64,000 nt of DNA from an uncultured Acidobacteriota bacterium (GTDB lineage Bacteria > Acidobacteriota > Thermoanaerobaculia > Multivoradales > UBA5704): assembly GCA_963770895.1 (NCBI GenBank), contig CAVYRF010000002.1:5312001-5376000 (forward strand), written 5' to 3'. Made by a program: the position numbers and the translations under genes. Below are positions 19,013 through 63,196 of the stretch, piece after piece. The notes beneath the pieces were generated by a model that was not told where the DNA came from, did no database searches, and saw only the letters and a program-made list of their open reading frames with translations. Position 1 is the first letter of the stretch. Every line of letters begins with the position of its first letter.

Positions 19013-19260
19013 TTCGCATGGTAGTCGCGCCGCAATCCGGTCCTCTGGCAAGGCGCGCCGACGCAGGCATAGTCGAACCTATGTCGAGGAGGCGCAACGC
19101 CGCCAGGGGGCCGGAGGGCAAGCGAATACTATGCGAGTTAACCGGGCGGGACACTAGCCCTGAGCCGGGGCGCGGTTGCGCTCCGGCGCGCCGGCATGGG
19201 CGCCGGGCGCCTTCCATACCCGCTTGGATGGCGTCGTGCTTGTGGTGCGGGGGGGTGGGC

Positions 19261-36452: not shown

Positions 36453-37266
36453 CGCTGAAACCCCTCCAGCCTGACCGATTCTATCCCAGGCAGCGGTAGG
36501 ACGGTCTTCAGGTTTTCCAGCTGCTCCCGCAGGAGGAGGATCGAGGTCCAGTGGTCGCTTCGCGGGGAACTTCCCTGGGTACGGGGCGCTATGTAGCCCG
36601 GACAGGGATGGGCGTCCTCAGAATGAGACGGCAAAAGGGCAACACACCCCTGGGGGTGCGATGGACAGATGGCCCTATGCACGATTTCGCAAATCGCTAT
36701 GTTGCTGTTGACGCGACGCATTCTCTTCGACTTAGATACCTTGTAGCTGAAGAGACAATGGCGCGGTGGGTTGGAATTTAGGGGGAGGTCGATTGGCGAT
36801 GAACGCCGCGGAACGAAGGAAGCGTCATTGACAGCTAATCCCACAACAAGAAGGTACGGGTTGCTGCAATGCATGTCTCGAACTATAGTGGGTGGTTCTT
36901 TTGGATGAGGCATATAACTGACTACAATTATCGGCATCATCAGGATGTGGATGATGAGCAGAGTGGACAGGTTAAGGTAACTTGACGATAACGAAACATC
37001 ATTCCCGGGAAATCCTGCGCAAACTCGATTATCCGCAAAGTACGCTTGATTGTCTGAGGTGGGGACTCTCGTGGGCAACGGCGACAGGCAGAGCATGGAG
37101 ATCCGGTGCGCGCAGGGCTTTGACACAAATCGAGGAAGAGAGAGCACGATCGAGATGAACCCATAGCCCTTTGTCATGGTGGAACCCGGCGCACATCCGC
37201 TGAACCCGACGGTGCGAATCTCCATTGTTATAGTCTCTAGCCACGTCCTCCGCGGAGAGTGCTTTT

Positions 37267-42771: not shown

Positions 42772-43464
42772 CTTCGTGCGCCTTGAAGGTCGGGACCGTG
42801 TGCCTCACGAGAGTCTTGACATCGGCTGTGCGGTTTCCCGTCTCATCGAGGGTGGCGAGCTCGAGCGACCCAAGCCCGAGCGGCAAGTTCCACCTTTCCA
42901 TGTCCCCCGCCTCTCGGCAAAGGGATCTGCGCTTCGCGGGGAGCGCCGAGCGGGCCGCCGAACGCGGTCCCCGCCGGCCCCACAGCTCCCTAGACTAGGC
43001 CTAGGTCGCCCAACTCGGCGCGCCGTCGGCGGGCCAGAGCATGGTCCCCGATGTCATCGCCACCGACAACGTGAATCTGCCGAGGCGCCGGCCGGCCAGC
43101 TCCTAGCTCTTCGGGGCGCAAGGCAGAGCGCTGATCTCGGCAGTCATACGGAGGCTCCTTGTGCTGAGGTTTCGTTCTGCTGCTCGCTCCCCGTCTTCGC
43201 CGGGAACGCCGAGCTGGTGATCGGCTCGAGCATCCTGGGGCGCTGCCCGGGGCGTTGTCGCCCGGTCGCAGGCCTGCAAACTGATCTCCGACGCGCCGCC
43301 GCCTTCCGGATCGGCCATCGGTGGCGGATCGGTCCCGGCTGGCGAGTCTGCGGCTTGACCCAATCCGAGCTTCACCGTCGCTGCGCTCCGACCAGGATGG
43401 TCGCCTTGCGTCGAAACGGGTACCGCCATCGTCGGATTCCGCATTCTCGTCACGGGCCGCTGGG

Positions 43465-44718
43465 CTAGAAGACCCGCCACCATGGCGCTGCCAGCACTCC
43501 GTCGGCCAGCCAGGCAATCTCGCTTCCGGTGTGCAGCAGCAGGCCGGGGCGTGCACGGTCCGCGTACTCCTGCCGGAACAACTTGAGCGAGCGCACATCC
43601 GCAAGGGAAGGGCGGCGCCCGGTCTTCACCTCGATGGGAAGCAGCATCCCATCCTGCTCGATGACAAAGTCCACTTCGTCGCCCGCCACGGTGCGCCAGT
43701 ACAGGATCTCGGCCTCCACCGGTGATGAGTCCCGCCAGGCCAGCAGATCCTGAAGCACCAGGCTTTCGAGGTGAGCGCCCTGCGGTGTCGTTTCGCCTGC
43801 CAGGTGCATCGCCAGACCCGTATCGCACCAGAAGACTCGGGGGGTCTTGAGCAGGCGCTTCGTGCGGTTGACAGTGAAGGCAGGCAGGCGGACCAGTTGG
43901 TAGGTGGTCTCGAGCAGGTTGAGGTGGCGATGCACCGTGGGTTGGGACATCCCGATATCGCGGGCCACCTCCGTCTGATTGAGCAGGCCCCCGAGCCGCA
44001 GGCAGATCGCCCGCATCAGTCGCCGAACATCCACCAGCGACGCCACTGCCGAGATCTCCAGCAGATCGCGTTCGAGGTAGGTTCTGACATAGCCGGCGAA
44101 CCAGGCGGACCGCGCCTCGGCATCGTCCAACTCGTGGGCGGGGGTCGGATAGCCGCCGCGTCGCGCCAGCGCGCGCCAGTCCTCCTCCGGGGCAGTCTCG
44201 GCGGAAAGCACCGCAGGCCAGTCGCGATCAGCGGCCGCCAGCAAGCGCGACCAAGCACCGGTGGTCCCCAAGCCAAGCTGCTCACGACGAGTGAGCGGCC
44301 AGAGCGTGAGATAGGCAGCCCGCCCCGCAAGCGATTCGGAGATTCGCCGCATCAGAAGCAGGTTGGCAGAACCAGTGAGCAGGAACCGGCCCGGCGTGCG
44401 GCGCTGGTCGATTGCCCGCTTGACCGCCAATAGCAGGTCCGGGGATCGCTGGACCTCGTCGAGCGTCAGCGGCCCCTCGGCGTTGGCAACGAGCGCCGCC
44501 GGTTCGAGCCGCGCGCGCTCCAGGACATCCAGGTCGTCGAGGGTGAGATAAGCTCGCTGCGGCTTGCTCGGCAGTTGCTGCACCAGGGTTGTCTTGCCGG
44601 TCTGCCGGGCGCCGGTGAGGACGACTGCCGGAAACGACTTGAGGAGAACGGCCAGGCGGGGCGCAAGGAATCGCGACAGGGTGCGGGATGGTTCATTCAC
44701 GCCGCGAATGATATCCAT
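43465..44718 (-). CDS. ATP-binding protein, AAA_14 + DUF4143
   Basis: GARQTGKTT, LDEVQR, LLTGSA, GGYP, YLERDL, DTGLA, EVDFVIE...PIEVK. Confidence 0.93.
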   Translation of the reverse strand: MDIIRGVNEPSRTLSRFLAPRLAVLLKSFPAVVLTGARQTGKTTLVQQLPSKPQRAYLTLDDLDVLERARLEPAALVANAEGPLTLDEVQRSPDLLLAVKRAIDQRRTPGRFLLTGSANLLLMRRISESLAGRAAYLTLWPLTRREQLGLGTTGAWSRLLAAADRDWPAVLSAETAPEEDWRALARRGGYPTPAHELDDAEARSAWFAGYVRTYLERDLLEISAVASLVDVRRLMRAICLRLGGLLNQTEVARDIGMSQPTVHRHLNLLETTYQLVRLPAFTVNRTKRLLKTPRVFWCDTGLAMHLAGETTPQGAHLESLVLQDLLAWRDSSPVEAEILYWRTVAGDEVDFVIEQDGMLLPIEVKTGRRPSLADVRSLKLFRQEYADRARPGLLLHTGSEIAWLADGVLAAPWWRVF

Positions 44719-44745
44719 TCACCGCATGAATAGCAACCCATCTAC

Positions 44746-44820
44746 GCCTCGGCGACCGAGCTTGAGAAGTTCGCCCGACTCTACAAGAAGCCGCTCACGT
44801 TCTTCCTCAGCGGCGACTAA
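44746..44820 (+). pseudogene. C-terminal remnant of an XRE HTH protein
   Basis: ASATELEKFARLYKKPLTFFLSGD*; upstream in-frame stop and no start. Confidence 0.5.
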
Positions 44821-44932
44821 GGGCAGCCTCTACCCGGGGACGCCGGATCGCGCCGCGCTTCCGAGGCACCGCGGCGCCGGAACGAGCCTGAGCAGGTGGG
44901 GCTAGGATTCCTGCGCCTTGCGCGCGGTGACT

Positions 44933-45394
44933 CTAGGGGCAACTCGGAAAGCCGGCGGTGTCATAGACCGGCATCGATGTCTGGTTCAAGGCATTCGAGT
45001 AGACCCGCCCCTTGCCGGTCTTCAGGTCAATGACCTCAAGCGTGTATGCGACGTTCGTGAGTCCCGCCGTGAAGACCCAATAAGCGTTGAAGGGCTCGAC
45101 GCAGGCGTCGATCACCTTCACGAACAGCTCGGGATCGTCCGCGTCGAAGAACCAGAACCAGCCCCCGCCGAGGACGGGGCTCTTGTCCGTGTGGAAGAGC
45201 GGCACCGCGTGGCCGCCGCCCGCCAGGCCGCCCCCGGCGTCGTAGTTGACCGCCACTTCGAAGCGGTCGCCGACACCCAGGCAGAGGGTGGTGTCGTTAG
45301 CCGTGCAGTTGTAGGACTGTTGGGTCTCGGCCGAGGAAGCCCTGGCGCCCGCCAGCACGAGGAAGGCGCCGAGGACGGCGATGCTCCGCTTCAT
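44933..45394 (-). CDS. Small secreted Cys-containing protein (stand-alone form of a domain common at C-termini of Thermoanaerobaculia proteins)
   Basis: Signal peptide; TTLCL..RFEV...FWFFD...ELFVKVIDAC...YWVF.AGLTNV. Confidence 0.78.
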   Translation of the reverse strand: MKRSIAVLGAFLVLAGARASSAETQQSYNCTANDTTLCLGVGDRFEVAVNYDAGGGLAGGGHAVPLFHTDKSPVLGGGWFWFFDADDPELFVKVIDACVEPFNAYWVFTAGLTNVAYTLEVIDLKTGKGRVYSNALNQTSMPVYDTAGFPSCP

Positions 45395-45830
45395 GGTTCA
45401 CCCCCTTGCTTCATAGAGGACACGCGACAAACCGCTTTGTTGGGTCGGGCCTGCCGTCTAGTCTCGTCGCGCTCCCAGGCAGAGACGGTCGAAGGGTCGA
45501 GGCCGAACCGGCGAGCTAGCGCTTCCGCGGAGAGTCCCGCAGCCTGCCGCGCGGCTCTGACCCGCCCGCCGAAGGTTCCTGGCTCCGGCCGCGGGTCGTA
45601 GCCGAGAAAGGCGAGGATGCCGGGCAGGAAGCGCAGCCCAGGCGCGCCCCGCCCCGCCTCCCAACTCGCAAGGCTCGCCTGCGAGCAGCCGATCTCGTGG
45701 GCCGCGTGTCTCTGGCGGAGGCCGCGGTCAAGGCGCGCCCGCCTGAGATGCTCGCCAATGGTCCGGGGTGCCTCCGGGTAACCCTGCGGACTCGACTTCC
45801 GTCCTCGTAAGCGGACACGAACACTTATGC
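45391..45830 (-). pseudogene. Double XRE HTH reading frame without a canonical start codon
   Basis: Translated by hand: RLRGRKSSPQGYPEAPRTIGEHLRRARLDRGL...SWEAG...FLGYDP...FGGRVRAARQAAGLS...AWERD; no ATG/GTG/TTG upstream of the HTH domains before the TAG at 45895-97. Confidence 0.75.
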
Positions 45831-45870
45831 ACGCGGCCCCAGGGCTGCGTGCACCTTTTGTGATCCGCTT
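45809..45870. repeat. Inverted repeat with central CA dinucleotide; candidate recombination (att-like) site
   Basis: TGCACGCGGCCC-CA-GGGCTGCGTGCA (45828-45853, one mismatch) plus outer arms AAGCGGA-CAC / GTGATCCGCTT. Confidence 0.6.
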
Positions 45871-45989
45871 GCGGGGCAGGATTCTTCGCCCTGGCTATCC
45901 TCAGAACCGTCGCACCCTGGGCGAGCACCTCAAGTAGCCGAAGTCCCAGGGGAGCCGAGGCGGAGGCGCCGGTGCACTTGGTAAGGAGC

Positions 45990-46265
45990 AGGGGCCGACG
46001 CAGTAATCTCGTCGCTCGGCCCCGGTCGGCTTCGAGGAAGAAGAAAACATTCCGGCGGTGCTCCGGTTCGGCCTCGAAGCGAAGGCCGAAGACACGATCC
46101 GGTTCCACGCCGAGCTGGTGGAGCGTGCCGCTCTCCTGCACCTCGACCTTCCACCGGCGGGGTACGATGCCGGTCACGCGGAAGGGCCTTGGGCAGACTT
46201 CCTTCCGGCGCAAGCTCCTCGGATACCGGGGAACCTGGCGCCAGGGGCTTCACCGGACGCACGAA
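45990..46265. pseudogene. Replication-relaxation (Replic_Relax) family remnant with an internal inversion
   Basis: Minus strand: WKVEV...GVEPDRVFGL...FFFLEADRG; plus strand continues RGTMPVTR...TSFRRKLLGY..TWRQGLH. Confidence 0.72.
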
Positions 46266-46281
46266 GCATGCCCCTGCCGCC

Positions 46282-46316
46282 TACAATGGACTACAGCCAT
46301 GGTCCTTAACCATGGC
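46282..46316 (+). promoter_or_regulatory. -10 box and palindromic operator upstream of the lexA-like gene
   Basis: TACAAT at 46282-87; GCCATGGT-cctta-ACCATGGC at 46296-46316. Confidence 0.6.
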
Positions 46317-46331
46317 CCTAAGACCAACCCT

Positions 46332-46984
46332 ATGGGCAGACAACGCACCTACCAATCTGAACAGGTCCTCGTCGCGCTTGAGCGCTACGCCATCCAGCAT
46401 GGCCGGGCGCGCCGACCATCGAGGAGTTCCGCCAGGCCCTCGGCGTCGGTTCGAGCCGCACGGTCCTGCGCTACCTTCAGGAGCTCGAGGATGGCGGCTT
46501 CATCCGGCGCGCGCCCGGTGCGCGTGGCATCCAAGTCCTGCGCCGCCCCTCCGGCGGGACGCAGACTCAGCCGGTGCCGGTCCTTGGCCGCGTGACCGCC
46601 GGCGCCTTGGACCTCGCCGAGCAGCACTACGACGGTTGGCTACAGCTCCCGGTCGAAGATCTCAAACCGAAGTCTGCCAAGTTCTTCCTCCTCAAGATCC
46701 ACGGCCGGTCTATGGATCAGGCAAAGGTCGGAGGGGAGCGGATCGAAGACGGGGACCTCGTGCTCGTGCGCCAGCAGACCGCGGCCGATCCTGGTGAGAT
46801 CGTCGTGGCGCATGTAGACGGCGAGGCAACGGTGAAGAAGCTGGCACGTCTGCCGGACTATTGGGTGCTGAAGCCGGAGTCCTCGCAATCTCACTACCGC
46901 CCCATCCTCGTTGGCCCCGGTTTCTCCATTCAGGGAGTCGTGACGAAGGTCATCAAGAAGGGATCTGAAGTATTCGACCTATAA
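46332..46984 (+). pseudogene. lexA: LexA-like S24 repressor, +2 frameshift
   Basis: HGRA|PTIEEFRQALG wHTH, AG cleavage site (RVTAG), GRSM and ATVKK catalytic motifs; extra CG in GCGCGC near 46407-46412. Confidence 0.85.
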
Positions 46985-49885: not shown

Positions 49886-50155
49886 ATGAAGACTTTGACC
49901 TACCGCATCCATCTCACCCCCGAACCCGAAGGGGGATATACCGTGACCGTCCCCGCCCTCCAGGGCTGCATTACCTGGGGCCGCGACTACGAGCACGCCC
50001 AAAAGATGGCCCATGAAGCCATAGAGCTCTACCTCTCTTCCCTGGCCGACGACGGGGAACCCATTCCCGAGGACACCCTCTCTGCCGATGCTTTCGTCCA
50101 GATCCAAGCACCGGCAGCATGGAGCACCTCAGGAGCCTCACCGCGAAGCAAATAG
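49886..50155 (+). CDS. hicB: HicB family antitoxin
   Basis: EGGYTVTVPALQGCITWG...AHEAIELYL...GEPIP. Confidence 0.92.
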   Translation: MKTLTYRIHLTPEPEGGYTVTVPALQGCITWGRDYEHAQKMAHEAIELYLSSLADDGEPIPEDTLSADAFVQIQAPAAWSTSGASPRSK

Positions 50156-50346
50156 TCAAGGCGCTGAAGCAGGCGGGCTTCGTGGAGCACCGCCAGCACC
50201 GCACAAGCCACCTCCTCCTCGTCCATCCCGAGCGCAAGCTACGTACCATAGTTCCCATGCATCACGGCGACTTGCCCCGCGGCACCGTGCGCGCCATCAT
50301 CCGACAGAGCGGGATGACCGAGGAGGAGTTCAAAGCGCTGCTCTAG
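50119..50346 (+). CDS. hicA: HicA family toxin
   Basis: IVKALKQAGF...TSH...VPMHHGDLPRGTVRAIIRQSG. Confidence 0.92.
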   Translation: MEHLRSLTAKQIVKALKQAGFVEHRQHRTSHLLLVHPERKLRTIVPMHHGDLPRGTVRAIIRQSGMTEEEFKALL

Positions 50347-50350
50347 CAGC

Positions 50351-51949
50351 TCATGCCGCCTCGCCCTCCTCATCTGCTTCTTGTCCTGTTGTATCTGCTT
50401 CCATCAGTTCCCTAATCTTTTCAAGCTTCTTCTCGGAGCTTTCATCTGCGAAAAAGGTTCGAACGTCGTGGAGAAAAGCCCGCAGCTCGACACTCGTTGC
50501 TGTGGCTGACCAGCGGCGAAACGGTTTGGCCGCGTCAATCTTGAGTTCCCGGTCTCGCAGTCTGGGGTTCGAACCTAGAATACCGAGGATCATTCGCTTC
50601 TCGCTCGGGGAACCAACGCGGAACCGCGAAGCCGCTTCTTTGTTGAATTGGATGAGCAGGCGCTGGGGTTCGAACCGTTCGCGGGTCTCGGTAAGCTTCT
50701 GCATCTCTTGCGTCACCTGGATGCGTTCTCGGGTGAGGCTTTGGCGCTCTTCGAGAAATTCGGCGTCGTCCAGCAGCTCGCGGATGCGGAGCTTGTTCAG
50801 GTTCGCGAGCTGGCGATCGAGCGATGCGGCCCGCACGTCAAGTGCATGCCGCTGCTTCGCGAGGAGTTCCTGGTCCTCGGCCATGACGCCGGCCAGGCGG
50901 TCCATCTCGAAGTGATGGAACTTCTCGGGAAGCGTGGCTTCCTCCAAGAACGCCGCAAGCTGCGCGTCGAGGCGTTCCGCCGTGACCGACCGTTGGGTAC
51001 AATGGTAGTCGAGGCGGCGCCAGGAGCAGTGGTAGTAGATGTAGCGGGAGCCGAAGCGGTTCCGCTTGTGCTCCGCGGTCACGAGGAAGCCGCACTCGTC
51101 GCAACGTATGAGGCCCGTATAGGCGAACTCATGCGTCTTGCGCCGCGGCTTCCCCGGACGCCCGAGTAGCTCCTGCACGCGCTCGAACTCGGAGAGCGTC
51201 ACCATGGCCTGATGCTTGCCGGGGTGGCTCTCGCCCTCCCATTCGATGACACCCGCGTAGAAGGGGTTCTTCAGGATCTTGTAGATCGCGCTCTTGGTGA
51301 ACGGGGCGCCTCCGATCCGCTTCCGTGTTCTCGTCGTAAGGCCCCATTCTTTGCCCGCCATCTCCCAAACGCGGCGGGGCGTCGCCTCGCCCGAGAGCAC
51401 GAGGCGCCACATCCGCTCGATCGCATAGAAGCGCTCGGGGTCGGGGATGATGCCGCCGCTCTCCCGGTCGTTCAGGTAGCCGGCGGGCGCGAAGTTCGGC
51501 AGCCAGCCGCGTTTCACTTTGGCGCGCATTCCCCGGCGGACGTTCTCCGAGAGCGAGTCCACGTAATACTTTGAGTACCCGAAAATGATCGAGAGCATGA
51601 ACTTGCCCTGCGAGTTGTTCTCGAAGGAGAAGGTGGCGAAGCGCAGGTCCTTCAGCTTCCCGGTATCGAGGTGGTAGATGATCCGGCCGCCGTCCACGGA
51701 GTTCCTCGCCAGGCGGTCCGGGTGCCAGGCGATCACGCCTTCCGCCTTGCCGCGCTCGATTTCGCGGAGCATCGCCTCGAAGACCGGCCGGCCGGGAGCC
51801 TTGGCGCTCTGCGATTCTTCGAAGACGCGCACTATGGTCGCGCCCCAGGCAGCGGCATGCCGTTCCATCTCCGCGCGTTGCGATTCGATGGAGAGCACCT
51901 GGCGATCCTCGGACTCGCTTGATTTGCGGCAGTAGAGAAAATAGTTCAT
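50351..51949 (-). CDS. Large serine recombinase (resolvase + recombinase + Zn ribbon + coiled coil)
   Basis: YCRKSSE catalytic Ser, WHPDRLARN, NPFYAG, CDECG...YYHC zinc ribbon. Confidence 0.96.
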   Translation of the reverse strand: MNYFLYCRKSSESEDRQVLSIESQRAEMERHAAAWGATIVRVFEESQSAKAPGRPVFEAMLREIERGKAEGVIAWHPDRLARNSVDGGRIIYHLDTGKLKDLRFATFSFENNSQGKFMLSIIFGYSKYYVDSLSENVRRGMRAKVKRGWLPNFAPAGYLNDRESGGIIPDPERFYAIERMWRLVLSGEATPRRVWEMAGKEWGLTTRTRKRIGGAPFTKSAIYKILKNPFYAGVIEWEGESHPGKHQAMVTLSEFERVQELLGRPGKPRRKTHEFAYTGLIRCDECGFLVTAEHKRNRFGSRYIYYHCSWRRLDYHCTQRSVTAERLDAQLAAFLEEATLPEKFHHFEMDRLAGVMAEDQELLAKQRHALDVRAASLDRQLANLNKLRIRELLDDAEFLEERQSLTRERIQVTQEMQKLTETRERFEPQRLLIQFNKEAASRFRVGSPSEKRMILGILGSNPRLRDRELKIDAAKPFRRWSATATSVELRAFLHDVRTFFADESSEKKLEKIRELMEADTTGQEADEEGEAA

Positions 51950-52137
51950 TGGTGCAGTGGGCCTTCCGAGCCCGAGGCCACGCATTCCGCTTCGCGCTTC
52001 GCCGAGCGCGCGAGGAGGAGATAGAGCGCGTCAAGGCGGGCAATGTGTTCGCGCGTCTCATCCGCCCCGAGTTCTTCCTTGAACTCCTCGCGCCAGATCT
52101 CCTGGAACTTGCAAATGTCGTCGGCCGTGATGCGCAC
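51946..52137 (-). CDS. Small helical protein coupled to the recombinase
   Basis: 63 aa, DDICKFQEIWREEFKEEL...; ATGA overlap with the recombinase start. Confidence 0.72.
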   Translation of the reverse strand: MRITADDICKFQEIWREEFKEELGADETREHIARLDALYLLLARSAKREAECVASGSEGPLHQ

Positions 52138-54496: not shown

Positions 54497-57142
54497 TTAT
54501 GTCTTCTTCGCCGAAGACCCTGCCGGCAAAAGCTTCCGGTACTCGGCCGCCTTCTCGCGATTGCCCGATGCATCGTAGAGCTGGACAACGCGCTCCACGG
54601 CCTTCGGCCTGTCGACCGGCACCGCCCGCCGGTAAAAGGCGAGAAGCAACGGCTCGGCTTCCTTGAAGCGTCCGAGCCCTACCAGCGCGCTGCCCAAGTC
54701 AGCCCCGGTTGAGACCGTGAGGTAGGCGGACGCTCCCGCCCGCATCTGCAAGATCCCGACCGCCTGCCGGAGGTGAGTCTCCGCCGCTTGGTAATTCTTC
54801 TGCTCGTAGAGGCTCTGTCCCTGCGCGCGCAGCACCGCGGCCATGAGGCGGTCAGTCGGTTCGACCTTTTCGAGCGCAAAGGCATAGGCTTCGCCGATCA
54901 ACCGGTCCGCCTCGGAAAATTCGTGGTCGGCCAGGAGCGCGAGCGCGAGCTGCACTTTGATCTTCTCCGTCGAGCGATGCTCTTTGCCAAGACCCGCCTC
55001 CGCAATCGCCAACGCCTCCCTGGAGGTACGCACCGCCGCTTTCACGTCTCCCTTTAGCAGATACAGGAGGCCAAGATTGTGCGTTGAAATAGCGACGCGC
55101 GGATGCAGCGGCCCGAGCGCGGCGCGGAACATAGCCGTAGCCTTCACCTGAAGACGCTCCGACTCATCAAACAATCCTTTCTGCTGAAGAGCCGCCGCCA
55201 CATTCGAATAGTCGTCAGCCACAATGGGATTGCGCTCGCCGTATATTTTCCTCCGCATGGCGAGGCATTCCCGAAGGAGCGGCTCGGCCTCGTCCGGCCG
55301 GTACATCGCCGTCAGAAGGCTTCCAAGGCCGCCGAGAGACTCGGCGATCGCCTCCGGGTTGGGGCTTGGCGCACTGCGGCGCAGGTCCAAGACGCGCCGC
55401 ATGATCGCAAGCGCTTCGTCGTAGCGCGCCTGCTCGTCCGCCATGATCCCAAGCTGCTGGAGGGTGTCGCCAATCCTCGGATCGCTCTGCGGGAGCCCCT
55501 TTTCGAACACCGCGAGCGCGCGGCGGTAGGTCGCCTCCGCCGGGGCAAACTGCCCAAGGCCGCGCTCCAAGGTCGCCATTTGGTCGAGCGTTTCGCCGAG
55601 AAGCGGATCATCGCTCGCCAGGTGCTGCGTTGCGAGGGCGAGCGCACGCTCCTGGGTTCCCGCTGCCTCCTTGAACAGGCCCATGTTCTGGTACATCTCG
55701 CCGATGCTGTTTAGAAGCCGCACCTCCGTCTCGGGCTCGTTCTTCAGGCGGCGCGGCAGCTCTTCGACCGCCTGGTCGAGGAGCTCCTTCGCGGTAGTCG
55801 CGCCGCGGAGGTTCTCGTGCGGGTTGGTGAGCTGGAACATTTCGATGAGAAGAGACGTGGTGGCCGCGGCGCGGGTAGCCTCGCGGGTGGCCTGGTCGCG
55901 TTGCCGTACGGTTTCCCGGTACTGCCGGAACCAGAGGCCGAGGGACGCGAGCACAAGAAGAGCGACAAGCGCCCCCACTGAGGCTGCGCCGCGATGACGG
56001 CTAAGAAACCGCGATGCGCGGTAGAGCCGGGAACCCCCTCGGGCCGAGACCGGCAAAAGAGCGAGGTGGCGCGCAACATCGTTCCCGAGGTCGGCCGCCG
56101 ACTGGTAGCGGCCGACCGGCTGCTTGCAGAGCGCCTTTGCAGCGACGGCATCAAGGTCGCCCTGGAGGCGCTTCGCGAGCGTTGTCGCGTTCTTCGTTGG
56201 AGGAGGCGGCGAGTACGGAGCCGGAGCGTCGCTGTCGCCGGCGAGCAGGGCGAGGTCGCTTAACCTGCCGGGCTCTTCGTGCAAGATGGCATCGCGGAGT
56301 TCCGAGACCGTGCGCGCATGCCGGTATGGCAGGCGGCTGGTCAGAAGCACCGAGAGGAGCACGCCCAAGGAGTACACGTCGCTCAAGGTCGTCGTCTCTT
56401 CCTGGCCGACCTGCTCCGGGCTCGCGAAGGGCAAGGTAAGGGGCGACGGCTCGCCCGCGCCGTTCCCCGCGGCGCCCACTTCTCTCGCGATGCCGAAGTC
56501 GAGGAGCTTCAGCTCGCCGGTAGCGGTCACGAGGATGTTCTCGGGTTTCAGGTCGCAGTGGATCACGAGCCGCTGGTGGGCGTAAGCCACCGCCTCGCAG
56601 ACCTTCAGGAAGAGCCGCAGCCGCCCCGGCACACCGAGCTGGCGGCGCTCGCAGTAGGCGGTGATGGGCTCACCCTCGATGAACTCGAAGACGAAGTACG
56701 GCAGGCCCTCCGGCGTCTCGCCGCTGTCATGGAAGGTCACGATTGCCGGGTGGGTGAGGCCCGCGAGCCGCTTGTCCTGCGAGAGCCTCACCGCGCGGGA
56801 GAAGAGCACCTTGACCGCCACCCGCCGGTCGTTGTTCTTCGTGTCCCGCGCCTCGTAGACCGCGCCCATGCCGCCGGCACCGACCCTGCCCACCACGACG
56901 AAGTGGTCGATTCGGTCGCCCTCGGCATAGTCCGGCTCCTCCGGCTCGTCGGGCAGGCCCAGGAGCCCCTTGAGGGCGGAGGTCGCGACGGGCGGGGCGT
57001 CGAGCAGGGCCTCGACCTCGCTGCGGAGTTCGGCATCGCCGCCGCAGGCCCGGTCGAGAAACGCCAGCCGCTCTTCGGCCGGAACCTGAAGCGCCTCCTC
57101 GAATATCCGTTTCACTTCGAGCCACCGTTTAAAGGGCGCCAT
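54497..57142 (-). CDS. Membrane Ser/Thr protein kinase with TPR repeats
   Basis: GAGGMGAVY, VAVK, HCDLKPEN, DFG, ASPEQ, SDVYSLG; TM helix, then multiple TPRs. Confidence 0.95.
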   Translation of the reverse strand: MAPFKRWLEVKRIFEEALQVPAEERLAFLDRACGGDAELRSEVEALLDAPPVATSALKGLLGLPDEPEEPDYAEGDRIDHFVVVGRVGAGGMGAVYEARDTKNNDRRVAVKVLFSRAVRLSQDKRLAGLTHPAIVTFHDSGETPEGLPYFVFEFIEGEPITAYCERRQLGVPGRLRLFLKVCEAVAYAHQRLVIHCDLKPENILVTATGELKLLDFGIAREVGAAGNGAGEPSPLTLPFASPEQVGQEETTTLSDVYSLGVLLSVLLTSRLPYRHARTVSELRDAILHEEPGRLSDLALLAGDSDAPAPYSPPPPTKNATTLAKRLQGDLDAVAAKALCKQPVGRYQSAADLGNDVARHLALLPVSARGGSRLYRASRFLSRHRGAASVGALVALLVLASLGLWFRQYRETVRQRDQATREATRAAATTSLLIEMFQLTNPHENLRGATTAKELLDQAVEELPRRLKNEPETEVRLLNSIGEMYQNMGLFKEAAGTQERALALATQHLASDDPLLGETLDQMATLERGLGQFAPAEATYRRALAVFEKGLPQSDPRIGDTLQQLGIMADEQARYDEALAIMRRVLDLRRSAPSPNPEAIAESLGGLGSLLTAMYRPDEAEPLLRECLAMRRKIYGERNPIVADDYSNVAAALQQKGLFDESERLQVKATAMFRAALGPLHPRVAISTHNLGLLYLLKGDVKAAVRTSREALAIAEAGLGKEHRSTEKIKVQLALALLADHEFSEADRLIGEAYAFALEKVEPTDRLMAAVLRAQGQSLYEQKNYQAAETHLRQAVGILQMRAGASAYLTVSTGADLGSALVGLGRFKEAEPLLLAFYRRAVPVDRPKAVERVVQLYDASGNREKAAEYRKLLPAGSSAKKT

Positions 57143-57143
57143 C

Positions 57144-57716
57144 CTATTTCCTCCTGTCCGCACCGACGAGGTGCACGAGGAGCCTTCGCGCGGTGTCCCA
57201 CTGCTCCCGGACTCTTCTGCGGGACAATCCAAGCTCTTCCCCGATCGCCCGCTCGCTCAGCCCATCGAAGACCTTGAGTTTCACGATCTCGGCAAGCTCC
57301 GGGTCTTGCTCCTCGACACCCGCCATGACTTCAAAGACAAATAGGGTGGCCTCCGCGTCTTCTGGGTCGGCGGGATGCGCCACCTGCTCCAGGGACAGCT
57401 CTTGTTGATCGCCGCCGCGCTTGATGGCATCGGCCCGGCGGAGCGTGCTGATTGCGAGGTGTCTTATGGCTGCATGCGCATAGGCGAAGAACTTCTTCCG
57501 ATTCGCGAGGTCCGGGAAGCGGTCGGCCAGATCAATGTAGAGCTCGTTCAGGAGAGCGGTCGGGGTGAGTGAACCGGCGGGGAGCCTCCCGAGGTGGTAC
57601 TGGCACATGCGTTTCAGGGTCGAATAGAGGAGACCAATCAGCTCATCAAGACCCCCTCGGTCACCCTCTCCGATCCGCCGGAGAAGGTCGGTGATGGTCC
57701 GCGCATCCTCGGGCAT
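57144..57716 (-). CDS. ECF sigma factor of the kinase-associated type
   Basis: ITDLLRR...GD, SLTPTALLNELY in place of DAED, IKRGG, region 4 HTH; directly upstream of the kinase. Confidence 0.9.
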   Translation of the reverse strand: MPEDARTITDLLRRIGEGDRGGLDELIGLLYSTLKRMCQYHLGRLPAGSLTPTALLNELYIDLADRFPDLANRKKFFAYAHAAIRHLAISTLRRADAIKRGGDQQELSLEQVAHPADPEDAEATLFVFEVMAGVEEQDPELAEIVKLKVFDGLSERAIGEELGLSRRRVREQWDTARRLLVHLVGADRRK

Positions 57717-58035
57717 AAGCTGCACTCCCTCAGAGATTTGGCGCTTTCGCGTTCGGGCATCTTACGCTGGCACCTTCATGTCTTCAAGCGCATTTCCGCC
57801 CTCCGATGGTCCAGCGACCCGGCTATCCCACCTGAACGGTGTGGACCAAAAGAACCCTGTTCCGCGCCTTCTATAGAGGAGGGGAACACGCAGCGACTCG
57901 GATTGGTCAGCACAGGCGCGATCGGCATTGCGCCATTTCGGAAGAGGAAGCATACTTTATACATTCCTGCCACAGGATCTGGTTCTGTCTGTCGCCGGCA
58001 GTCGCCGGCCGGACCATCAGAAGAGGACTAATCAC

Positions 58036-59043
58036 ATGAACGAGCCTGTAAGTGTTCCCAAGCCAGCCATTCCCCGATCGTCTCGACAGCGTGCCGCCTT
58101 GGTCGGGCTGATTCTTGGCGCTCTTCTGGCGGCGGGGGCTATCGGCCTTGACGCGCAGCAGAAGGGGTCCACTGCCTCTTCGCTTCAGCCTTCGTGCCTC
58201 ACACCGCTCGTGGCATCGGAGTCCTCGACTTCTGCAGCGGAGGCACAAGCTCTGCTTCCAACAATTCCTGCTGTTCCTCCGTCTCCCTTGCCGGCGGCGA
58301 TGCTCGCACCGGGGGTGCTTTCTGGCTCCCAAACTCCCCTGACAGCCACCCAAAACACCCCTACCGTGGGTGCAGACGATCTCAAGAATCTTTATGGTTA
58401 TTCCGGTCCTTACTACAACACCACCGATCTTGACGGTCGAGTAGTTGTATTGAATCAGTCCGTCTACACTTGGCCTACCGCCACTTGGAAGACTACCGGA
58501 TTGGTTCGCAATCAGACGCGTTGCCCACTGCACATTACAAGCGTAACTGCATTGCTCAAGGGCGCTGACGGTAGGACCCTCGCGACTGCCACCGCCAGCT
58601 TGCCCATCTCAGATCTTCGGCCAGGAGAACCAGGACCGTTTATTGTGGTGGCGCCTGTATCTCCGAGCGACGTGAGCTCCATTTCGTGGCAGGTCAGCTA
58701 TGCCCCTGCCATTGGCGTAACGAGGCTCTTTCGCACCGCTGTGTATTCCGAGTACGCAGACGAAACGGGATATCACATCACTGGGGCTCTTTTCAACGAC
58801 GCCACCACATCAGCTCAGGTTGAACTGGTGGGCGCTTGGCTCAATTCTCAAGGTCAGGTCTTTTATGTGGCAAACCTGCCCTTCATCACAGGCGACCCCA
58901 ATGCAGAGACGGAGCAGCTTGAATACACTACCTCTTTGCAGCCAAACCAGTTGGCAGCCTTCGCCTATACGAATCCTCAAGGCACGCTCGCGCAGGGTCT
59001 CTTGAAGGCACCGCAAGGTGCGCTCTGGGAGGTGTCGAAGTGA
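58036..59043 (+). CDS. Secreted protein with two FxLYD-like Ig domains
   Basis: Signal/TM; TGLVRNQT...LKGADG...LRPGEPGPF; TGALFNDA...WLNSQG...LQPNQLAAF. Confidence 0.7.
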   Translation: MNEPVSVPKPAIPRSSRQRAALVGLILGALLAAGAIGLDAQQKGSTASSLQPSCLTPLVASESSTSAAEAQALLPTIPAVPPSPLPAAMLAPGVLSGSQTPLTATQNTPTVGADDLKNLYGYSGPYYNTTDLDGRVVVLNQSVYTWPTATWKTTGLVRNQTRCPLHITSVTALLKGADGRTLATATASLPISDLRPGEPGPFIVVAPVSPSDVSSISWQVSYAPAIGVTRLFRTAVYSEYADETGYHITGALFNDATTSAQVELVGAWLNSQGQVFYVANLPFITGDPNAETEQLEYTTSLQPNQLAAFAYTNPQGTLAQGLLKAPQGALWEVSK

Positions 59044-62000
59044 GAATCTACCGCGCTGTCTTATTACTCGGTGCCCTTACTGGATTGTGCGCGACAAATG
59101 CGGATGCCTATGAATTTGGCTCCATACCGCTAGTCGACGTGGAAAATGCGGCGAATGCGATTAGCACAATGCCAAAGTATTCGTGCCCAGGCTTAAGCAG
59201 CGCCCATAACGGAAAACTCATTGCGCTTATGCTTACGCCAACCTGGGGAGAGACTACGCTAGGAGGCGTCAATTCACCTTCACCAATGACGCTAAGCCGC
59301 GCCGACAACGGCCCAGCCCTGTATCCGCCGGGAGACGAGAACGTGGAGCCGTACCGCCGAGCGTTTTGGCATACGGGTATCGGAGCATGGCAACTGGATG
59401 ACATCAATCTAGGCTCAGATCTGGGGTTTGAGAGGTTTGCAAGTGCAGCAGCGGCTATGGAGGTTGCTACAACTATGGCTGCGGCGTACTGCGGAACAAA
59501 AGGCAATGACAACCCGTACTACAACGCATTTCTAAATTGGATAGACTCATGTGAAGACAAGACGGCGAAAACCCCCAACACGCTGATTTGCCAGCGACTC
59601 TTCAATGCAATCTACAATTCCAATGGCCTGCCTTTTGTCACTCCCGATCCATCCGTAGATGAATACGGCGGCAGCGATATGCGTAGCTGTAGTCTTTCGG
59701 GAGGCGGCGGCACCTTCGCGTGTCTATACGTGAACCCCGCGACGGCTCAAGGCGCCACTTGGTGGGTACGGGAGAGCCCCGATGGCACCCCACCACTGGC
59801 AAAACCCTTTTACGTCTACAGGCAAAGCCACGGACCTTACGAGTGGCGATACTGGATGGCTGGAACCGACACCGGTTTCACGAGCGACATAGCCGTTGCA
59901 CGCCCATATGGTACTTGGTCAAAATGTGGACTGTGTTGGATGACGAACGGACAGCTTACTCCGGTGGTCGGTCCACCCTCCAAGTATTGTCCAATAAACT
60001 TCTCCCCGTGTGCTGGACTAAGCCCGCAGGCACTCTGTGACTTGAAGGCAGGCGCCGGTGCTTGCACCACGCCTCCTCCTCCTTCAACCCTTTCCGTCGC
60101 CCTCACGGCGGCTCCAAATAGCGGGCCTGCGCCCCTGAACGGCGTTATCTTGCAAGCTAACGTGACGGGGACCCCGAACGAGACCATCAACTACACCTTT
60201 TATTGCAACCGACCGGACCAAGGCACGAACATTACTCAGCCCTGGGACTATAAGCAGGACGCGATATCGCGGACTCAAATGAGGGCCCCCGGCGGAACCT
60301 GCGACTACCTGTATAAAACTCCCGGCACCTATACCGCGAAGGTCATCGCCGAGCAGGGAAACGGCGCGGCGCAGAGCCAGGTGACGATCACGGTGAGCGG
60401 CGGCACCACGTCCGGGTGCTTCCCTCTAGTGCTTGCCGCGAACAACCCGGCCGGTGGCGCGCCGCCCGTGGCCTCGCCGCCGGGAAGCGACCCCTGCGCG
60501 GTGGGCGAGTACCAGCCCGGGACACAAATTCAGCTCACCGCGACACCGGCAAGCAGCTGGACGGTAGGCAGCTGGGTCGGAACCGCAAACGACCCGAGCA
60601 CGGCGGACACGAACAGCCTCGTCATGCCTGCGTCGGCCCACTCGGTCAGCGTGAACTATGTCGAATCGGCACCGAGCCCCCTTACGATCACCACGACCTC
60701 CTTGCCGGATGGTTTCGTCGGCCAGCTGTACATGACCACGCTCGCGGCCTCGGGCGGCACCGGCACCGGCTACCACTGGAGCATACAGAGCGGCAGCCTT
60801 CCCGCCGGACTCGGCGGTAACGGCCAGACCGGCGTCATAAGCGGCACGCCGACACAGGGCGGCATCGGAAGCAATTTCACGGTGGGCGTAACGGATTCCG
60901 GCGGCGACTCGGCGAGCCGGCGGTTCTCGCTCTACGTGGAGGCCGCGCCGGGCCTCGCGATCTATTCGAGCGCTGCGGGTAGCTTCGCCTTCTTCGTGGG
61001 CAACCCATACACGCGAGCGAACTCGATCACCTATACCGCCGAGGGCGGCCAGGCGCCGTACACCTGGAGCGCGACCGGCTTGCCGCCGGGCCTCCAGATC
61101 GATTCCGCGGGCGGCTTCCTCTATGGGACGCCCACGGCAGCAGGGAGCTACGCGGTGACCATCAAGGCTGAGGACTCGACGGGCAAGTCGGGCTCGCTGC
61201 CGGTCGTGCTCTCGGTCACGAAAACCGCCATCACCATCTCCGGCTCTGGGGGCCAGACACCGGCGAGCCCGCCGGCGGGGCAGGTGGGGAAGAGCTACCT
61301 GACCTTCTTCCAGGCGGGCGGCGGGAGCAACACAGGGTTCCAGTGGTCCGTACAAGGGAGCCTGCCGCCCGGCCTCGTGTCAGAAAACGGCCCAGGCTGC
61401 CCGGCGAATTGCGCCCTGGAGGTTACCGGCACCCCGACCATGGCAGGCACTTACACCTTCACGGTCGCGGTGGCCGATTCGCTCGGCGACCGCGCGAGCC
61501 AGCCCGCGACCATCGTCGTGAACTCCGGCACGCCGCCCTCGATCACCACGACCACGTTCCCGCGGTCGACGATTGGATCGCCCTATACTGCCTCGCTCAC
61601 GGCAACCGGCGGCACCCCCGGATATCAGTGGGCCTTCGTGGGCCAGTCTCCCGATCCGGGCATCGTTCTCTCTCCGTCCGGCGTCCTGTCCGGCACTCCC
61701 ACCCTCACGAACGATTGCCCGACCGGAGCGACCGACGGCCCCGGCATCTGGGTCGGCTCCGGTTATCCGACGAGGTATTTCTCCGTCCAGGTCACGGACG
61801 CGGCGGGCCAGTCCTCGACGACGACGCTCTGCCTCGTCTCCTACTACCCCCTGCCGCACCTCACCGGTGCCAATCCTCCCTTCGTAATCGTGGACGGCCA
61901 GGATCACACGATCACCGTTGACGGTACGAACCTCCGCAACACCTCGATGCTGGAGCTTGGCACGGGCCTCGCGCCGACCACCTACGTGAGCCCCTCAGCG

Positions 62001-62456
62001 GTCACCTTCAGCCTCTTCCCGGCGCCCGGAGGAATATTCACGACCGGCCCCGGAGGCGGTGGCATCGGCGACACGACTTATGCCGTGCAGGTGGTCCAGC
62101 CCTATGCCGGGTTCAGCACCTCAAGCATTAACTTCGCGGTGTACGATCCGCCGCCAAGCTTGAGCGGCGTGAATGCCGTCCTAAACAACACCAGCCAGCC
62201 GTGCCGAGCCAACATGACCTGCGAGCTCGCGGTCTCCGGGACGGGCTTCGTCTTCACCACGAACTACCTTGTGGTCGAGTTGAGTCAGTCGCTCACGAGA
62301 GACTCCAACCCCTCGACGGCCCTTCCCTGGTCGAATCTCACAGTGGGTACGTTCTCCGCTCCCTCCGCCGGCACGTACACCCTGCGGGTGACGAACACGA
62401 ATCAGCAGAACGGCCAGCCTGCGAGCGCCACCTCCACGTTTACGGTGCAGCCTTAA
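59040..62456 (+). CDS. Large secreted protein: uncharacterised Cys-rich N-domain, PKD-like domain, He_PIG-type Ig repeats
   Basis: Signal peptide; repeats ITTTSLP.G.VG..Y...GG...Y.W....LP.GL....GTPT..G; GTGA overlap with the upstream gene. Confidence 0.85.
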   Translation: MRIYRAVLLLGALTGLCATNADAYEFGSIPLVDVENAANAISTMPKYSCPGLSSAHNGKLIALMLTPTWGETTLGGVNSPSPMTLSRADNGPALYPPGDENVEPYRRAFWHTGIGAWQLDDINLGSDLGFERFASAAAAMEVATTMAAAYCGTKGNDNPYYNAFLNWIDSCEDKTAKTPNTLICQRLFNAIYNSNGLPFVTPDPSVDEYGGSDMRSCSLSGGGGTFACLYVNPATAQGATWWVRESPDGTPPLAKPFYVYRQSHGPYEWRYWMAGTDTGFTSDIAVARPYGTWSKCGLCWMTNGQLTPVVGPPSKYCPINFSPCAGLSPQALCDLKAGAGACTTPPPPSTLSVALTAAPNSGPAPLNGVILQANVTGTPNETINYTFYCNRPDQGTNITQPWDYKQDAISRTQMRAPGGTCDYLYKTPGTYTAKVIAEQGNGAAQSQVTITVSGGTTSGCFPLVLAANNPAGGAPPVASPPGSDPCAVGEYQPGTQIQLTATPASSWTVGSWVGTANDPSTADTNSLVMPASAHSVSVNYVESAPSPLTITTTSLPDGFVGQLYMTTLAASGGTGTGYHWSIQSGSLPAGLGGNGQTGVISGTPTQGGIGSNFTVGVTDSGGDSASRRFSLYVEAAPGLAIYSSAAGSFAFFVGNPYTRANSITYTAEGGQAPYTWSATGLPPGLQIDSAGGFLYGTPTAAGSYAVTIKAEDSTGKSGSLPVVLSVTKTAITISGSGGQTPASPPAGQVGKSYLTFFQAGGGSNTGFQWSVQGSLPPGLVSENGPGCPANCALEVTGTPTMAGTYTFTVAVADSLGDRASQPATIVVNSGTPPSITTTTFPRSTIGSPYTASLTATGGTPGYQWAFVGQSPDPGIVLSPSGVLSGTPTLTNDCPTGATDGPGIWVGSGYPTRYFSVQVTDAAGQSSTTTLCLVSYYPLPHLTGANPPFVIVDGQDHTITVDGTNLRNTSMLELGTGLAPTTYVSPSAVTFSLFPAPGGIFTTGPGGGGIGDTTYAVQVVQPYAGFSTSSINFAVYDPPPSLSGVNAVLNNTSQPCRANMTCELAVSGTGFVFTTNYLVVELSQSLTRDSNPSTALPWSNLTVGTFSAPSAGTYTLRVTNTNQQNGQPASATSTFTVQP

Positions 62457-62492
62457 AGGAGAGGTAGGAAATGATTGCCAGGGAGAGCTGCC

Positions 62493-63176
62493 ATGTTCAA
62501 GGCAAAACCCGAGGTCGAAGGCCACTGGCACTCCCTGATCGAGGGCTTTGCCACTTCATCACTGGACTTCTATGAGCTGGCGAAAGCTGGCATCGCTAGG
62601 CGCGAGATCCCGGACCTCAAGATCTCACAGGTGGAGTGGAAGGAAAGCGGTGTGGGCTCCGGCAAGCGCGTCTATCTGCGCGTCAGCCGCGAGGGTCTGA
62701 ACTTCGACATCTGCGCCGCCCCCTTCGGCACCGGGTACTTCTTCTCCTGGTGGCTCGCAAAGATCAAGCGCGTCTTCCTGGATTTCCTCTTTATCATCGT
62801 CATGCTGGCTGGGGCCTTCTTCATGTTTCGGGCGTTCACGAGCGACAATCCTGGGAGCGAGGGAGGCCATGGTTGCATAGCGGTCGTGGGTGGCCCCCTG
62901 CTCCTCCTCGGCCTCCTCATGGGCCTCGGATTCCTTGTCCGCTATGGCGAGACCGGAAGTGAGCCCACCGTGCTCTCGATGCCGATCACGGGCTTCTTCT
63001 ACGGCTTCATCTTCCGCCCGCAGACATATTTCAACGACGACACCGCCCTCATGTTCCGGGAGTCCATCCATCACGCGGTCACGGAGGCCATCGACCAAGT
63101 GACTTCCGCCCAAGGCGTGCGCGGGCTCTCGGAAGAGGCGCGTAAGATAACCTTCCAGCCGGGCGGCAAGAGGTGA
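62493..63176 (+). CDS. Hypothetical membrane protein
   Basis: EWKESG..SGKR.YLR, FDICAAPFGTGYFFSWW, 2 TMs, TYFNDDTALMF. Confidence 0.75.
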   Translation: MFKAKPEVEGHWHSLIEGFATSSLDFYELAKAGIARREIPDLKISQVEWKESGVGSGKRVYLRVSREGLNFDICAAPFGTGYFFSWWLAKIKRVFLDFLFIIVMLAGAFFMFRAFTSDNPGSEGGHGCIAVVGGPLLLLGLLMGLGFLVRYGETGSEPTVLSMPITGFFYGFIFRPQTYFNDDTALMFRESIHHAVTEAIDQVTSAQGVRGLSEEARKITFQPGGKR

Positions 63177-63196
63177 TCGCCGCCGCGAAATAGCGG

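Follow-up and report, generated by a model that had tools for sequence, protein, structure and literature searches.

The window considered here is a stretch of 64,000 nucleotides (nt) of contig CAVYRF010000002.1 from the genome of an uncultured Acidobacteriota bacterium (assembly GCA_963770895.1), and positions given without a prefix are counted from its first letter. At 45840 it contains a palindrome from which two related peptides read outwards, one of them continuing as a double helix-turn-helix (HTH) frame that lacks a start codon. Sites of the same kind recur through the genome, and one of them lies within the 3′ end of the gene for a large serine recombinase that we term SR2. The relationship between palindrome, HTH frame and SR2 points to a recombinase gene that is divided by its own attachment (att) site.

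The palindrome and the reading frames around it

The core of the palindrome comprises two 12-nt arms (45828-45839 and 45842-45853; repeat I18) either side of the dinucleotide CA at 45840-45841, the putative point of crossover. The arms are complementary at 11 of 12 positions, and neither core nor centre is assigned a strand. Outside these the repeat finder places a middle inverted repeat (45798-45815 with 45864-45881; 18 nt, 78%) and an outer one (45744-45765 with 45911-45932; 22 nt, 82%). All three are nested, sharing a common centre to within 3 nt. Taken by itself the 12-nt core is not beyond chance: the window has two such repeats, and 20 sequences simulated with a first-order Markov model had 0.35 on average (range 0-2). 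The weight of the palindrome comes instead from its long homologous arms and from the 17 sister sites described below.

On the minus strand the sequence at the palindrome reads VRLRGRKSSPQGYPEAPRTIGEHLR and continues through two XRE-type HTH domains, which match HTH_3 (E 2.3e-19) and HTH_31 (E 7e-19) in Pfam. The frame is open from stop to stop over 167 codons (45391-45894). It has no in-frame ATG, GTG or TTG before a methionine eight residues from its end, and the list of open reading frames (ORFs) made with those three starts has none here. The part that belongs to the HTH family occupies 45456-45825. The plus strand carries a stub of a paralogous frame, 36 codons in length (45827-45937), which reads MHAAPGLRAPFVIRLRGRILRPGYPQNRRTLGEHLK and stops straight after GEHLK; it resembles homologues beginning MHLLSLTLRGRILRPGYP (P0010).

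The two arms, taken at their full length, are of different types. The left arm, which we call L (45786-45839, minus strand), overlaps the first codons of the HTH frame and matches our arm model with E 1.7e-5 in nhmmer; the right arm, R (45842-45893, plus strand), does so with E 4.4e-7. The peptide GYP is encoded as ggttacccg in one arm and as ggctatcct in the other, so that the arms differ at third codon positions while the peptide is kept. The likeness beyond the core is therefore that of two diverged copies of one coding sequence, and not the result of selection for pairing. An earlier note on this DNA, made from the sequence alone, had described an inverted repeat around CA with homologous peptides reading outwards, situated at the 5′ end of an HTH frame, and in both respects the sequence is as claimed. 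It had also described a full double HTH without a start. The frame is indeed start-less and has both domains, but the last ~20 residues of the family give way to unrelated sequence from ~45456, where a repeat boundary falls (45453-45456), and its own C-terminus has been lost.

HTH homologues from other organisms keep the N-terminal peptide (24 aligned), and the starts assigned to them by gene callers vary widely. In P0007 and P0003 the antisense translation of an R-like arm is preserved upstream of this peptide, and thus the palindrome is kept. This is not the picture of a normal or alternative start without a conserved palindrome that the earlier note had set against its own proposal. A tblastn search of 50,697 phage records with the window tail gave no match at E 1e-6. 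The HTH alignment found 14 loci in viral contigs, all weak generic HTH matches, and none of these was used.

A family of related sites

The genome compared comprises 8.16 Mb in three contigs, of which C2 includes the window and C1 is a second. A search with 201 nt around the centre gave eight matches in this genome, whose flanks together with further BLAST matches led to 12 sites. A profile was then built from 18 arms and run over the whole genome with nhmmer, giving 28 hits at E up to 10. New arm hits were inspected at eight places. Six proved to be further sites, one (C2:5379811) had already been counted, and one (C1:1977105) is ordinary coding sequence. The total in the genome is thus 18 sites.

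Each site has two homologous arms of ~50 nt around CCC-CA/TG-GGG. There are five homologous types of arm, L, L2, R, R2 and X, and these occur in many combinations. The L-R combination of 45840 is found again at C2:3487683, and L is joined to R2 at C2:4620618 and to L2 at C1:1999658. R-type arms have other partners elsewhere, X at C2:3492523 and R′ at C1:2002623, and there is a lone R arm at C2:3592641. The earlier note had taken the palindrome for a crossover site of the serine recombinase type, with inverted arms around a 2-bp centre, and had suggested that its half-sites be sought elsewhere in the genome; the recurrence of this layout at all 18 sites bears out the one and answers the other.

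We also considered whether the arms might be the ends of one repeated transposon, and rejected this: the centre is the single boundary common to the repeated blocks, which end differently from copy to copy on their far side. Nor do the sites have the features of abutted ends of an insertion sequence (IS) or transposon, namely a transposase together with a repeated unit that the arms bound and a duplication of target DNA; the sole transposase genes seen were an IS21 pair beside the C2:3487683 copy, named from their IstB- and IstA-like first residues.

A large serine recombinase gene that ends within a site

SR2 is a large serine recombinase of 519 amino acids (aa), encoded at C2:5378291-5379850 (equivalent to 66291-67850 in the numbering of the window), with Pfam matches to Resolvase (E 6.3e-31) and Recombinase (E 2.3e-21). 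Its frame runs through the site centred at 67811 (C2:5379811) and stops 39 nt past it. Gene and site are outside the window, 2.3-3.9 kb past its end and 22 kb to the right of 45840, a site that itself has no adjoining large serine recombinase gene. The association is repeated elsewhere in the genome. A paralogue on C1 with 69% identity to SR2 ends in the site at C1:123379, and a remnant of the 3′ end of SR2, 98% identical, is found at C2:4642356-4642666, where the similarity ends 12 nt past the centre.

Homologues of SR2 are present in 28 of 61 genomes of the taxonomic family (E up to 1e-30). An arm follows the 3′ end in all eight SR2 loci with at least 66% identity. Of the 22 more distant loci, three have an arm hit at the 3′ end, and that a weak one; ~14 nt ahead of where the crossover is presumed to lie, the tails of these distant homologues still share a stretch around ggcaaaaggg that looks conserved, as judged by eye and uncounted. 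The HTH profile matches none of 27 chromosomal SR2 ORFs, three of the 30 loci having been dropped as too short. Rather, these ORFs end in short and unrelated tails that are encoded by the target. One protein representative of 648 aa (P0060) has an SR2-like recombinase running into the C-terminal part of a Mg-chelatase/ComM-like protein; here an element has presumably integrated, and the recombinase frame reads on into the gene that it entered.

Two sequence histories meet at the centre

The 45840 junction may be compared with that at C2:3487683. An ungapped alignment of 45456-46022 with C2:3487299-3487865 falls into two parts: the 386 nt that end at 45840 differ at 36 positions, and the 181 nt that begin at 45842 are identical. 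Thus two histories meet exactly at the central dinucleotide.

Parental sites were rebuilt by swapping the halves of paired junctions. The outer arms of the rebuilt attP pair at 9-10 of 14 positions in all three pairs, compared with 2-7 of 14 in the six observed junctions; those of the rebuilt attB pair at 4-7 of 14 without gaps, and are less clear than attP. For the window, the L arm can pair with the one found at the 3′ end of SR2 at 8 of the 12 inner and 10 of the 14 outer positions. This pattern of symmetry fits what would be expected of the hybrid attL and attR sites of serine integrases. The central dinucleotide is the same at both ends of the C1 pair (CA and CA) and of the C2:4620618/4642654 pair (TG and TG), while those of the window pair are equal only when 45840 is read on the other strand.

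On the target side, the right core flank is conserved in relatives from ~C2:5381135, the left flank is itself mobile DNA, and no empty target site was recovered in the relatives compared. In the assembled contigs of four public soil runs the sole joint seen was that from 44752 to 46020, on opposite strands, as at C2:3487683. Loose contig ends at 44753 and 45452/3 indicate that the blocks concerned also occur in other surroundings, and nothing in these contigs bears on switching or excision at 45840.

Recombinase and tail form one reading frame

We took the integrase half of each SR2-linked junction and placed it before the HTH half of the partner junction. The three pairs in this genome each give one frame without a stop: 523 + 150 codons of recombinase and tail for the window pair, 516 + 147 for the C1 element and 566 + 147 for the C2:4620618/4642654 pair.

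We extended this to five other genomes in which an SR2 homologue and a gene of the HTH family lie on one contig and strand, 29-48 kb apart. This gave seven pairs; excluded were the other nine of 16 HTH places, along with two SR2 places that had no partner. Each of the seven joins is in frame and free of stops, over 590-629 codons from the start of the alignment. The central dinucleotides are equal at both ends of each pair and are CA, CA, TG, GC, GC, AA and CT. In one pair the dinucleotide occupies a different codon position, and does so at both ends alike. The differing arm lengths together with this one changed phase argue for selection over inheritance as the origin of the frame relationship, without proving it. 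For two of the seven pairs (G009 and G003_C5) the centre was set by hand to the tied or next-best candidate, on the grounds that the integrase-side arm then keeps its conserved spacing and the right half-sites resemble one another. In genome G015 two SR2-type elements, L038 and L076, have near-identical target-side sequence at both junctions, with GC at the centre; the shared sequence indicates insertion in paralogous copies of one host gene.

Full-length fusions of the two parts are also found. P0058, a metagenomic protein annotated as 'site-specific DNA recombinase', runs into the HTH tail, and a 381-codon open frame at G003:C4:834531-835590 passes from recombinase into tail. Among the best 150 representatives found with P0058, five align through the HTH part in one stretch and three in two; all eight (622-674 aa) have Resolvase, Recombinase and HTH domains. 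A 695-aa integrase encoded in the virion genome of the cultured Paenibacillus phage Harrison likewise combines Resolvase, Recombinase and a zinc ribbon with two C-terminal HTH domains.

A recombinase probably divided by its own attachment site

Taken together, these comparisons make it likely that the palindrome at 45840 is an attL-type hybrid site of elements driven by SR2, with attP lying inside the integrase gene, that the start-less HTH frame is the amputated tail of the enzyme, and that the window holds a decayed relic of such an element. On the free element a single gene would encode the catalytic domain, the recombinase domain, a zinc ribbon with coiled coil, a short linker containing the crossover site, and the double XRE HTH. 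SR2 would cut at the central dinucleotide. After integration the recombinase at one end of the element would keep a short, arbitrary tail encoded by the target, and at the other end the final ~147 codons, comprising the double HTH, would read inwards with neither a start nor a promoter. The L arm at 45840 would be the element-side (P′) half-site and the R arm that of the target. The target would here have been the relic end of an older element of sister type that carried a stub of its own tail, and for this reason two homologous peptides would read outwards from the centre.

This agrees with the earlier note in its suggestion that two related element ends are fused, which would now be an L-arm tail and the relic R-arm tail of a sister element. 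Its proposal that recombination decides what precedes the HTH frame also stands, with a correction: judging from the in-frame joins, what is supplied is the whole of the integrase frame rather than a start codon. What it took for a regulator gene is an in-frame C-terminal module of the integrase, and probably not a gene in its own right.

The division may have consequences for function. We infer that integration is the work of the long form and that the short form would act otherwise, whether by itself or together with the freed tail, so that the state of the DNA would set the isoform of the enzyme. It is a doubtful step beyond this to suppose that the state of the DNA also sets the direction of reaction without a separate directionality factor. 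The long form encoded by the circle, its tail reading the outer 25-45 nt of the unusually long arms, might license attP x attB, with the integrated tail-less form, alone or with the freed tail, carrying out attL x attR. The same enzyme might then drive local inversions such as that between 45840 and 67811, since relic sites pile up head to head; a flip of this 22-kb segment would rebuild the long gene inside the chromosome.

Alternative explanations

A number of observations weigh against the division of the integrase gene as we have set it out. All of the support comes from comparing sequences, and no recombination event has been observed. The homologue search lists 55 stand-alone HTH proteins as called by gene callers, and five of the seven foreign tails have one of the starts ATG, GTG and TTG in frame past the crossover and ahead of the first helix, so that the tail might also be made alone. 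In two of the seven foreign pairs, the two whose centres were later set by hand, the automatic best centre gave a join that was out of frame, and since the pairs share ancestry the ten in-frame joins out of ten overstate their independence. The core hairpin is followed by CCTTTTG and resembles a terminator. Lastly, the site in the window and the one linked to SR2 are opposed in polarity, with CA at 45840 and TG at 67811 on the same strand, 21,971 bp apart. This is not the arrangement of a plain attL/attR pair, and it calls for one or more additional rearrangements. A simple inversion of 44753-46022 (1.27 kb) was tried and rejected: it restores the contiguity of an ATPase gene block with the R arm but rebuilds the gene stub of neither end, these being a small XRE gene and the minus-strand stub at 46023-46213.

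The opposed polarity is what would be expected if 45840 and 67811 were the inverted ends of a live 22-kb invertible segment. Inversion by SR2 would re-join the recombinase and tail in frame on the minus strand, and that single event would turn the L-R and short L-R junctions into an L-type palindrome at one end and an R-type palindrome at the other. However, with a tail that lacks its C-terminus and flanking genes reduced to stubs, the locus points to decay rather than to a maintained switch, and the identical L-R junction at C2:3487683 has no partner site at 22 kb. A live switch is thus improbable.

We think it quite unlikely that the palindrome is an operator in the divergent promoter of an autoregulated XRE repressor with a non-canonical start, such as the ATT in TIGEHL, the stub on the other strand being a chance duplication. 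A palindrome of 26 bp directly upstream of an HTH gene is the classic layout for this, members of the family have L, V, I or M in front of GEHL, with ATG as the codon in the C1 paralogue, and the canonical starts in five of seven foreign tails noted above point the same way. Yet the same arms are found at the 3′ ends of recombinase genes that have no adjoining HTH gene, the break in sequence history falls exactly at the centre, and the HTH frame is continuous with a recombinase in every pair examined. Moreover, in the window no ATG, GTG or TTG precedes the HTH in frame, and no sigma-70-like promoter was found in 45300-46300, which is a weak test in an organism of high G+C content.

The earlier note had assigned the site to another enzyme, encoded at 50351-51985. 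This is an intact large serine recombinase with Resolvase, Recombinase and Zn_ribbon_recom domains 4.5 kb from the site, and the plus-strand stub begins with an ATG in the opposite arm (45827), so that recombination across the centre could be imagined to give or take the start of a regulator. The whole-genome nhmmer search, however, places no arm of the family between 45893 and 67775 (the latter in window-equivalent numbering), nor near the 51% paralogue of this enzyme at C1:93182-94777, while it is the unrelated SR2 that ends inside a sister site. The enzyme is so remote from SR2 that tblastn does not pick it up at E 1e-3, the 3′ end of its gene abuts hicA, and the stub is a dead end of 36 codons. 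Assignment of the site to this recombinase is very unlikely. As to its neighbours, the hicB-hicA pair (49886-50346) ends 5 nt from the stop of the recombinase gene, and the same neighbours are present in the C1 element.

Last, it is hardly credible that the long inverted repeat serves as RNA or DNA secondary structure, that is a bidirectional terminator or processing hairpin between divergent units: although the RNA fold of 45740-45940 reaches -97.3 kcal/mol (z -4.5, a stability that none of 200 shuffles equals) and 45828-45853 has the form of a terminator hairpin with a T-run on the plus strand, one terminator-like site was found where 0.7 are expected in shuffles, the outer arms differ at third codon positions with the peptide kept and so have common coding ancestry, those of the observed junctions pair at just 2-7 of 14 positions, and the genes diverge from the hairpin, with none converging on it.

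The window copy and its surroundings

The copy in the window is decayed and rearranged, a relic. The block at 45842-46022 (plus strand) is identical to C2:3487685-3487865, where it runs straight into an ATPase gene. The corresponding AAA_14/DUF4143 ATPase block, of 1.4 kb, is found in the window at 43350-44752 (minus strand) with 99.6% identity to C2:3487864-3489267; at C2:3487683 it directly follows the R arm, whereas here it is inverted and on the far side of the tail. There is a 2-nt overlap at the junction of the ATPase block. Next to the breakpoint at 44752/44753 are the last 21 codons of a small XRE gene (44755-44818, plus strand) that is intact beside the tail gene of the C1 element, and at the other end a minus-strand gene is cut at 46022/23. 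Two histories are possible. The first is ordinary integration followed by the 1.27-kb inversion with extra loss. The second is an intramolecular reaction of attP with a target-like site in inverted orientation, which would flip the 22-kb segment.

Between the truncated tail and the ATPase block lies an ORF of 153 aa (44933-45394, minus strand) that has a signal-peptide-like start and no Pfam match, and that overlaps the stop of the tail frame by ATGA. Its DNA (~44958-45455) is absent from other copies of the tail, and metagenome contigs continue differently at 45453.

To the right of the site, from 46023 to the end of the window at 64000 and within the ~22 kb that separate 45840 from 67811, are a LexA-like gene, two genes of the metallo-β-lactamase fold, hicAB and the unrelated recombinase 50351-51985. 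The LexA/CI-like gene (46300-46984; Peptidase_S24 and LexA DNA-binding domains) has an apparent frameshift near 46385. Its first ~26 codons (MGRQRTYQSEQVLVALERYAIQHG) are in another frame, and the Pfam match begins at profile position 25; this is either a pseudogene or an indel of the assembly.

The start of the low-G+C foreign DNA is marked by a sister site at 36597-36662, composed of an X arm, TG at 36651-52 and an arm that is core only. A second X-arm site with TG lies at C2:5381094 in direct orientation, 32.4 kb away, and the two bracket the low-G+C island. The conserved core genome resumes ~40 nt past the site at C2:5381094, and neither of these X-arm sites is adjoined by a recombinase gene. 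An intact paralogous element of ~52 kb on C1, with ends at C1:71846 and C1:123379, shares long stretches with the island at 72-90% identity (54532-64000 with C1:110089-119589, and 50123-51949 with C1:93182-95364). The right parts are collinear, while the units of the left part are each inverted with their order kept. Further away, at 18986-19171, there is a repeat of ~165 nt with dozens of copies on all three contigs at 72-97% identity, some matching in both orientations at one place; it looks like a miniature inverted-repeat transposable element or an element of the repetitive extragenic palindromic kind.

Significance and relation to known systems

The decay of the copy at 45840 means that it is the family, rather than this locus, that is of interest. 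The design would be extended to a soil acidobacterial lineage, in which start-less 'XRE regulators' at the edges of islands would be integrase tails marking old points of insertion. The 18 such marks in this genome would map a graveyard of stacked elements, and the analysis provides a set of ten natural attL/attR pairs with different central dinucleotides. If the isoforms do differ in direction, they would offer control without a recombination directionality factor (RDF) for serine integrases, which are widely used tools of genome engineering.

The closest parallel is the Bacillus phage vB_BsuS-Goe14 (Kohm et al., 10.1101/2021.11.22.469490), whose sprA-like large serine integrase has attP in its C-terminal coding region. 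On integration the enzyme is shortened by 131 aa and a small ORF identical to the lost end remains; integration by the long form and excision by the short one are put forward by the authors as a speculation. The attP-in-gene design is alike and the tails are of comparable size (131 aa against 147-150 codons), a likeness of design only. Goe14 has a Bacillota host and targets spoVK, where SR2 belongs to a soil Acidobacteriota-like genome and has relic att sites as its target; and by the authors' account the Goe14 tail contains no known domain, in contrast to the double XRE HTH of SR2.

A second precedent is DsiB of the ssrA-specific islands of Dehalococcoides (McMurdie et al. 2011, PMC3146451), a serine integrase whose ORF overlaps attL/attP and has a stop codon that depends on the flank. 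Its authors suggest that the ORF may be whole only when the element is circular or when another island adjoins it in tandem. As described there, the DsiB islands occur in stacks like the SR2 elements, and differ in having a CcrB-like partner, DsiA, and a transfer-messenger RNA (tmRNA) gene as target; no HTH tail figures in that description. Beyond Goe14 and DsiB, our full-text search of the literature found no further split or attP-spanning serine integrase. The mechanism is thus known but rare and little documented, the bacterial case having been documented so far for one Bacillus phage and hinted at for DsiB.

Division of an integrase gene at its own att site is better known from the SSV1-type or 'suicidal' tyrosine integrases of archaeal viruses and plasmids, which have attP in the gene, are split at integration and are whole only on the free circle; a 2021 review calls self-splitting integrases exclusively archaeal (PMC8371274). 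As set out in that review these are tyrosine enzymes in which the N-terminal part is separated from the catalytic part, leaving both pieces inactive. SR2, by contrast, is a serine enzyme whose catalytic part stays whole, with the accessory DNA-binding module alone removed.

The repressor isoforms of the mycobacteriophages BPs and Brujita reportedly differ in degradation tags. In these phages attP lies inside a regulatory gene whose product has state-dependent C-termini, like the isoforms of SR2, but in the accounts given the split gene is that of the repressor, and the integrase is a separate tyrosine enzyme (PMC4557955, PMC3694055).

The arms of the SR2 sites are conserved over ~40-50 nt per side, in part through coding constraint, and attP lies inside the gene rather than beside it. 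Canonical large serine integrases have arms of roughly 20-25 nt per side. In other respects the sites are like those described for phiC31, Bxb1 and A118, having imperfect inverted half-sites, a 2-bp crossover that sets polarity and hybrids that are less symmetric (PMC3783163).

That a C-terminal module can change which pair of sites recombines is known from synthetic integrase-RDF fusions, which favour attL x attR (Olorunniji et al. 2017, PMC5737554). As presented there these fusions are engineered and the module is a directionality factor. The fused form of SR2 exists when attP is intact, and its logic would therefore have to be the opposite of that of the RDF fusion.

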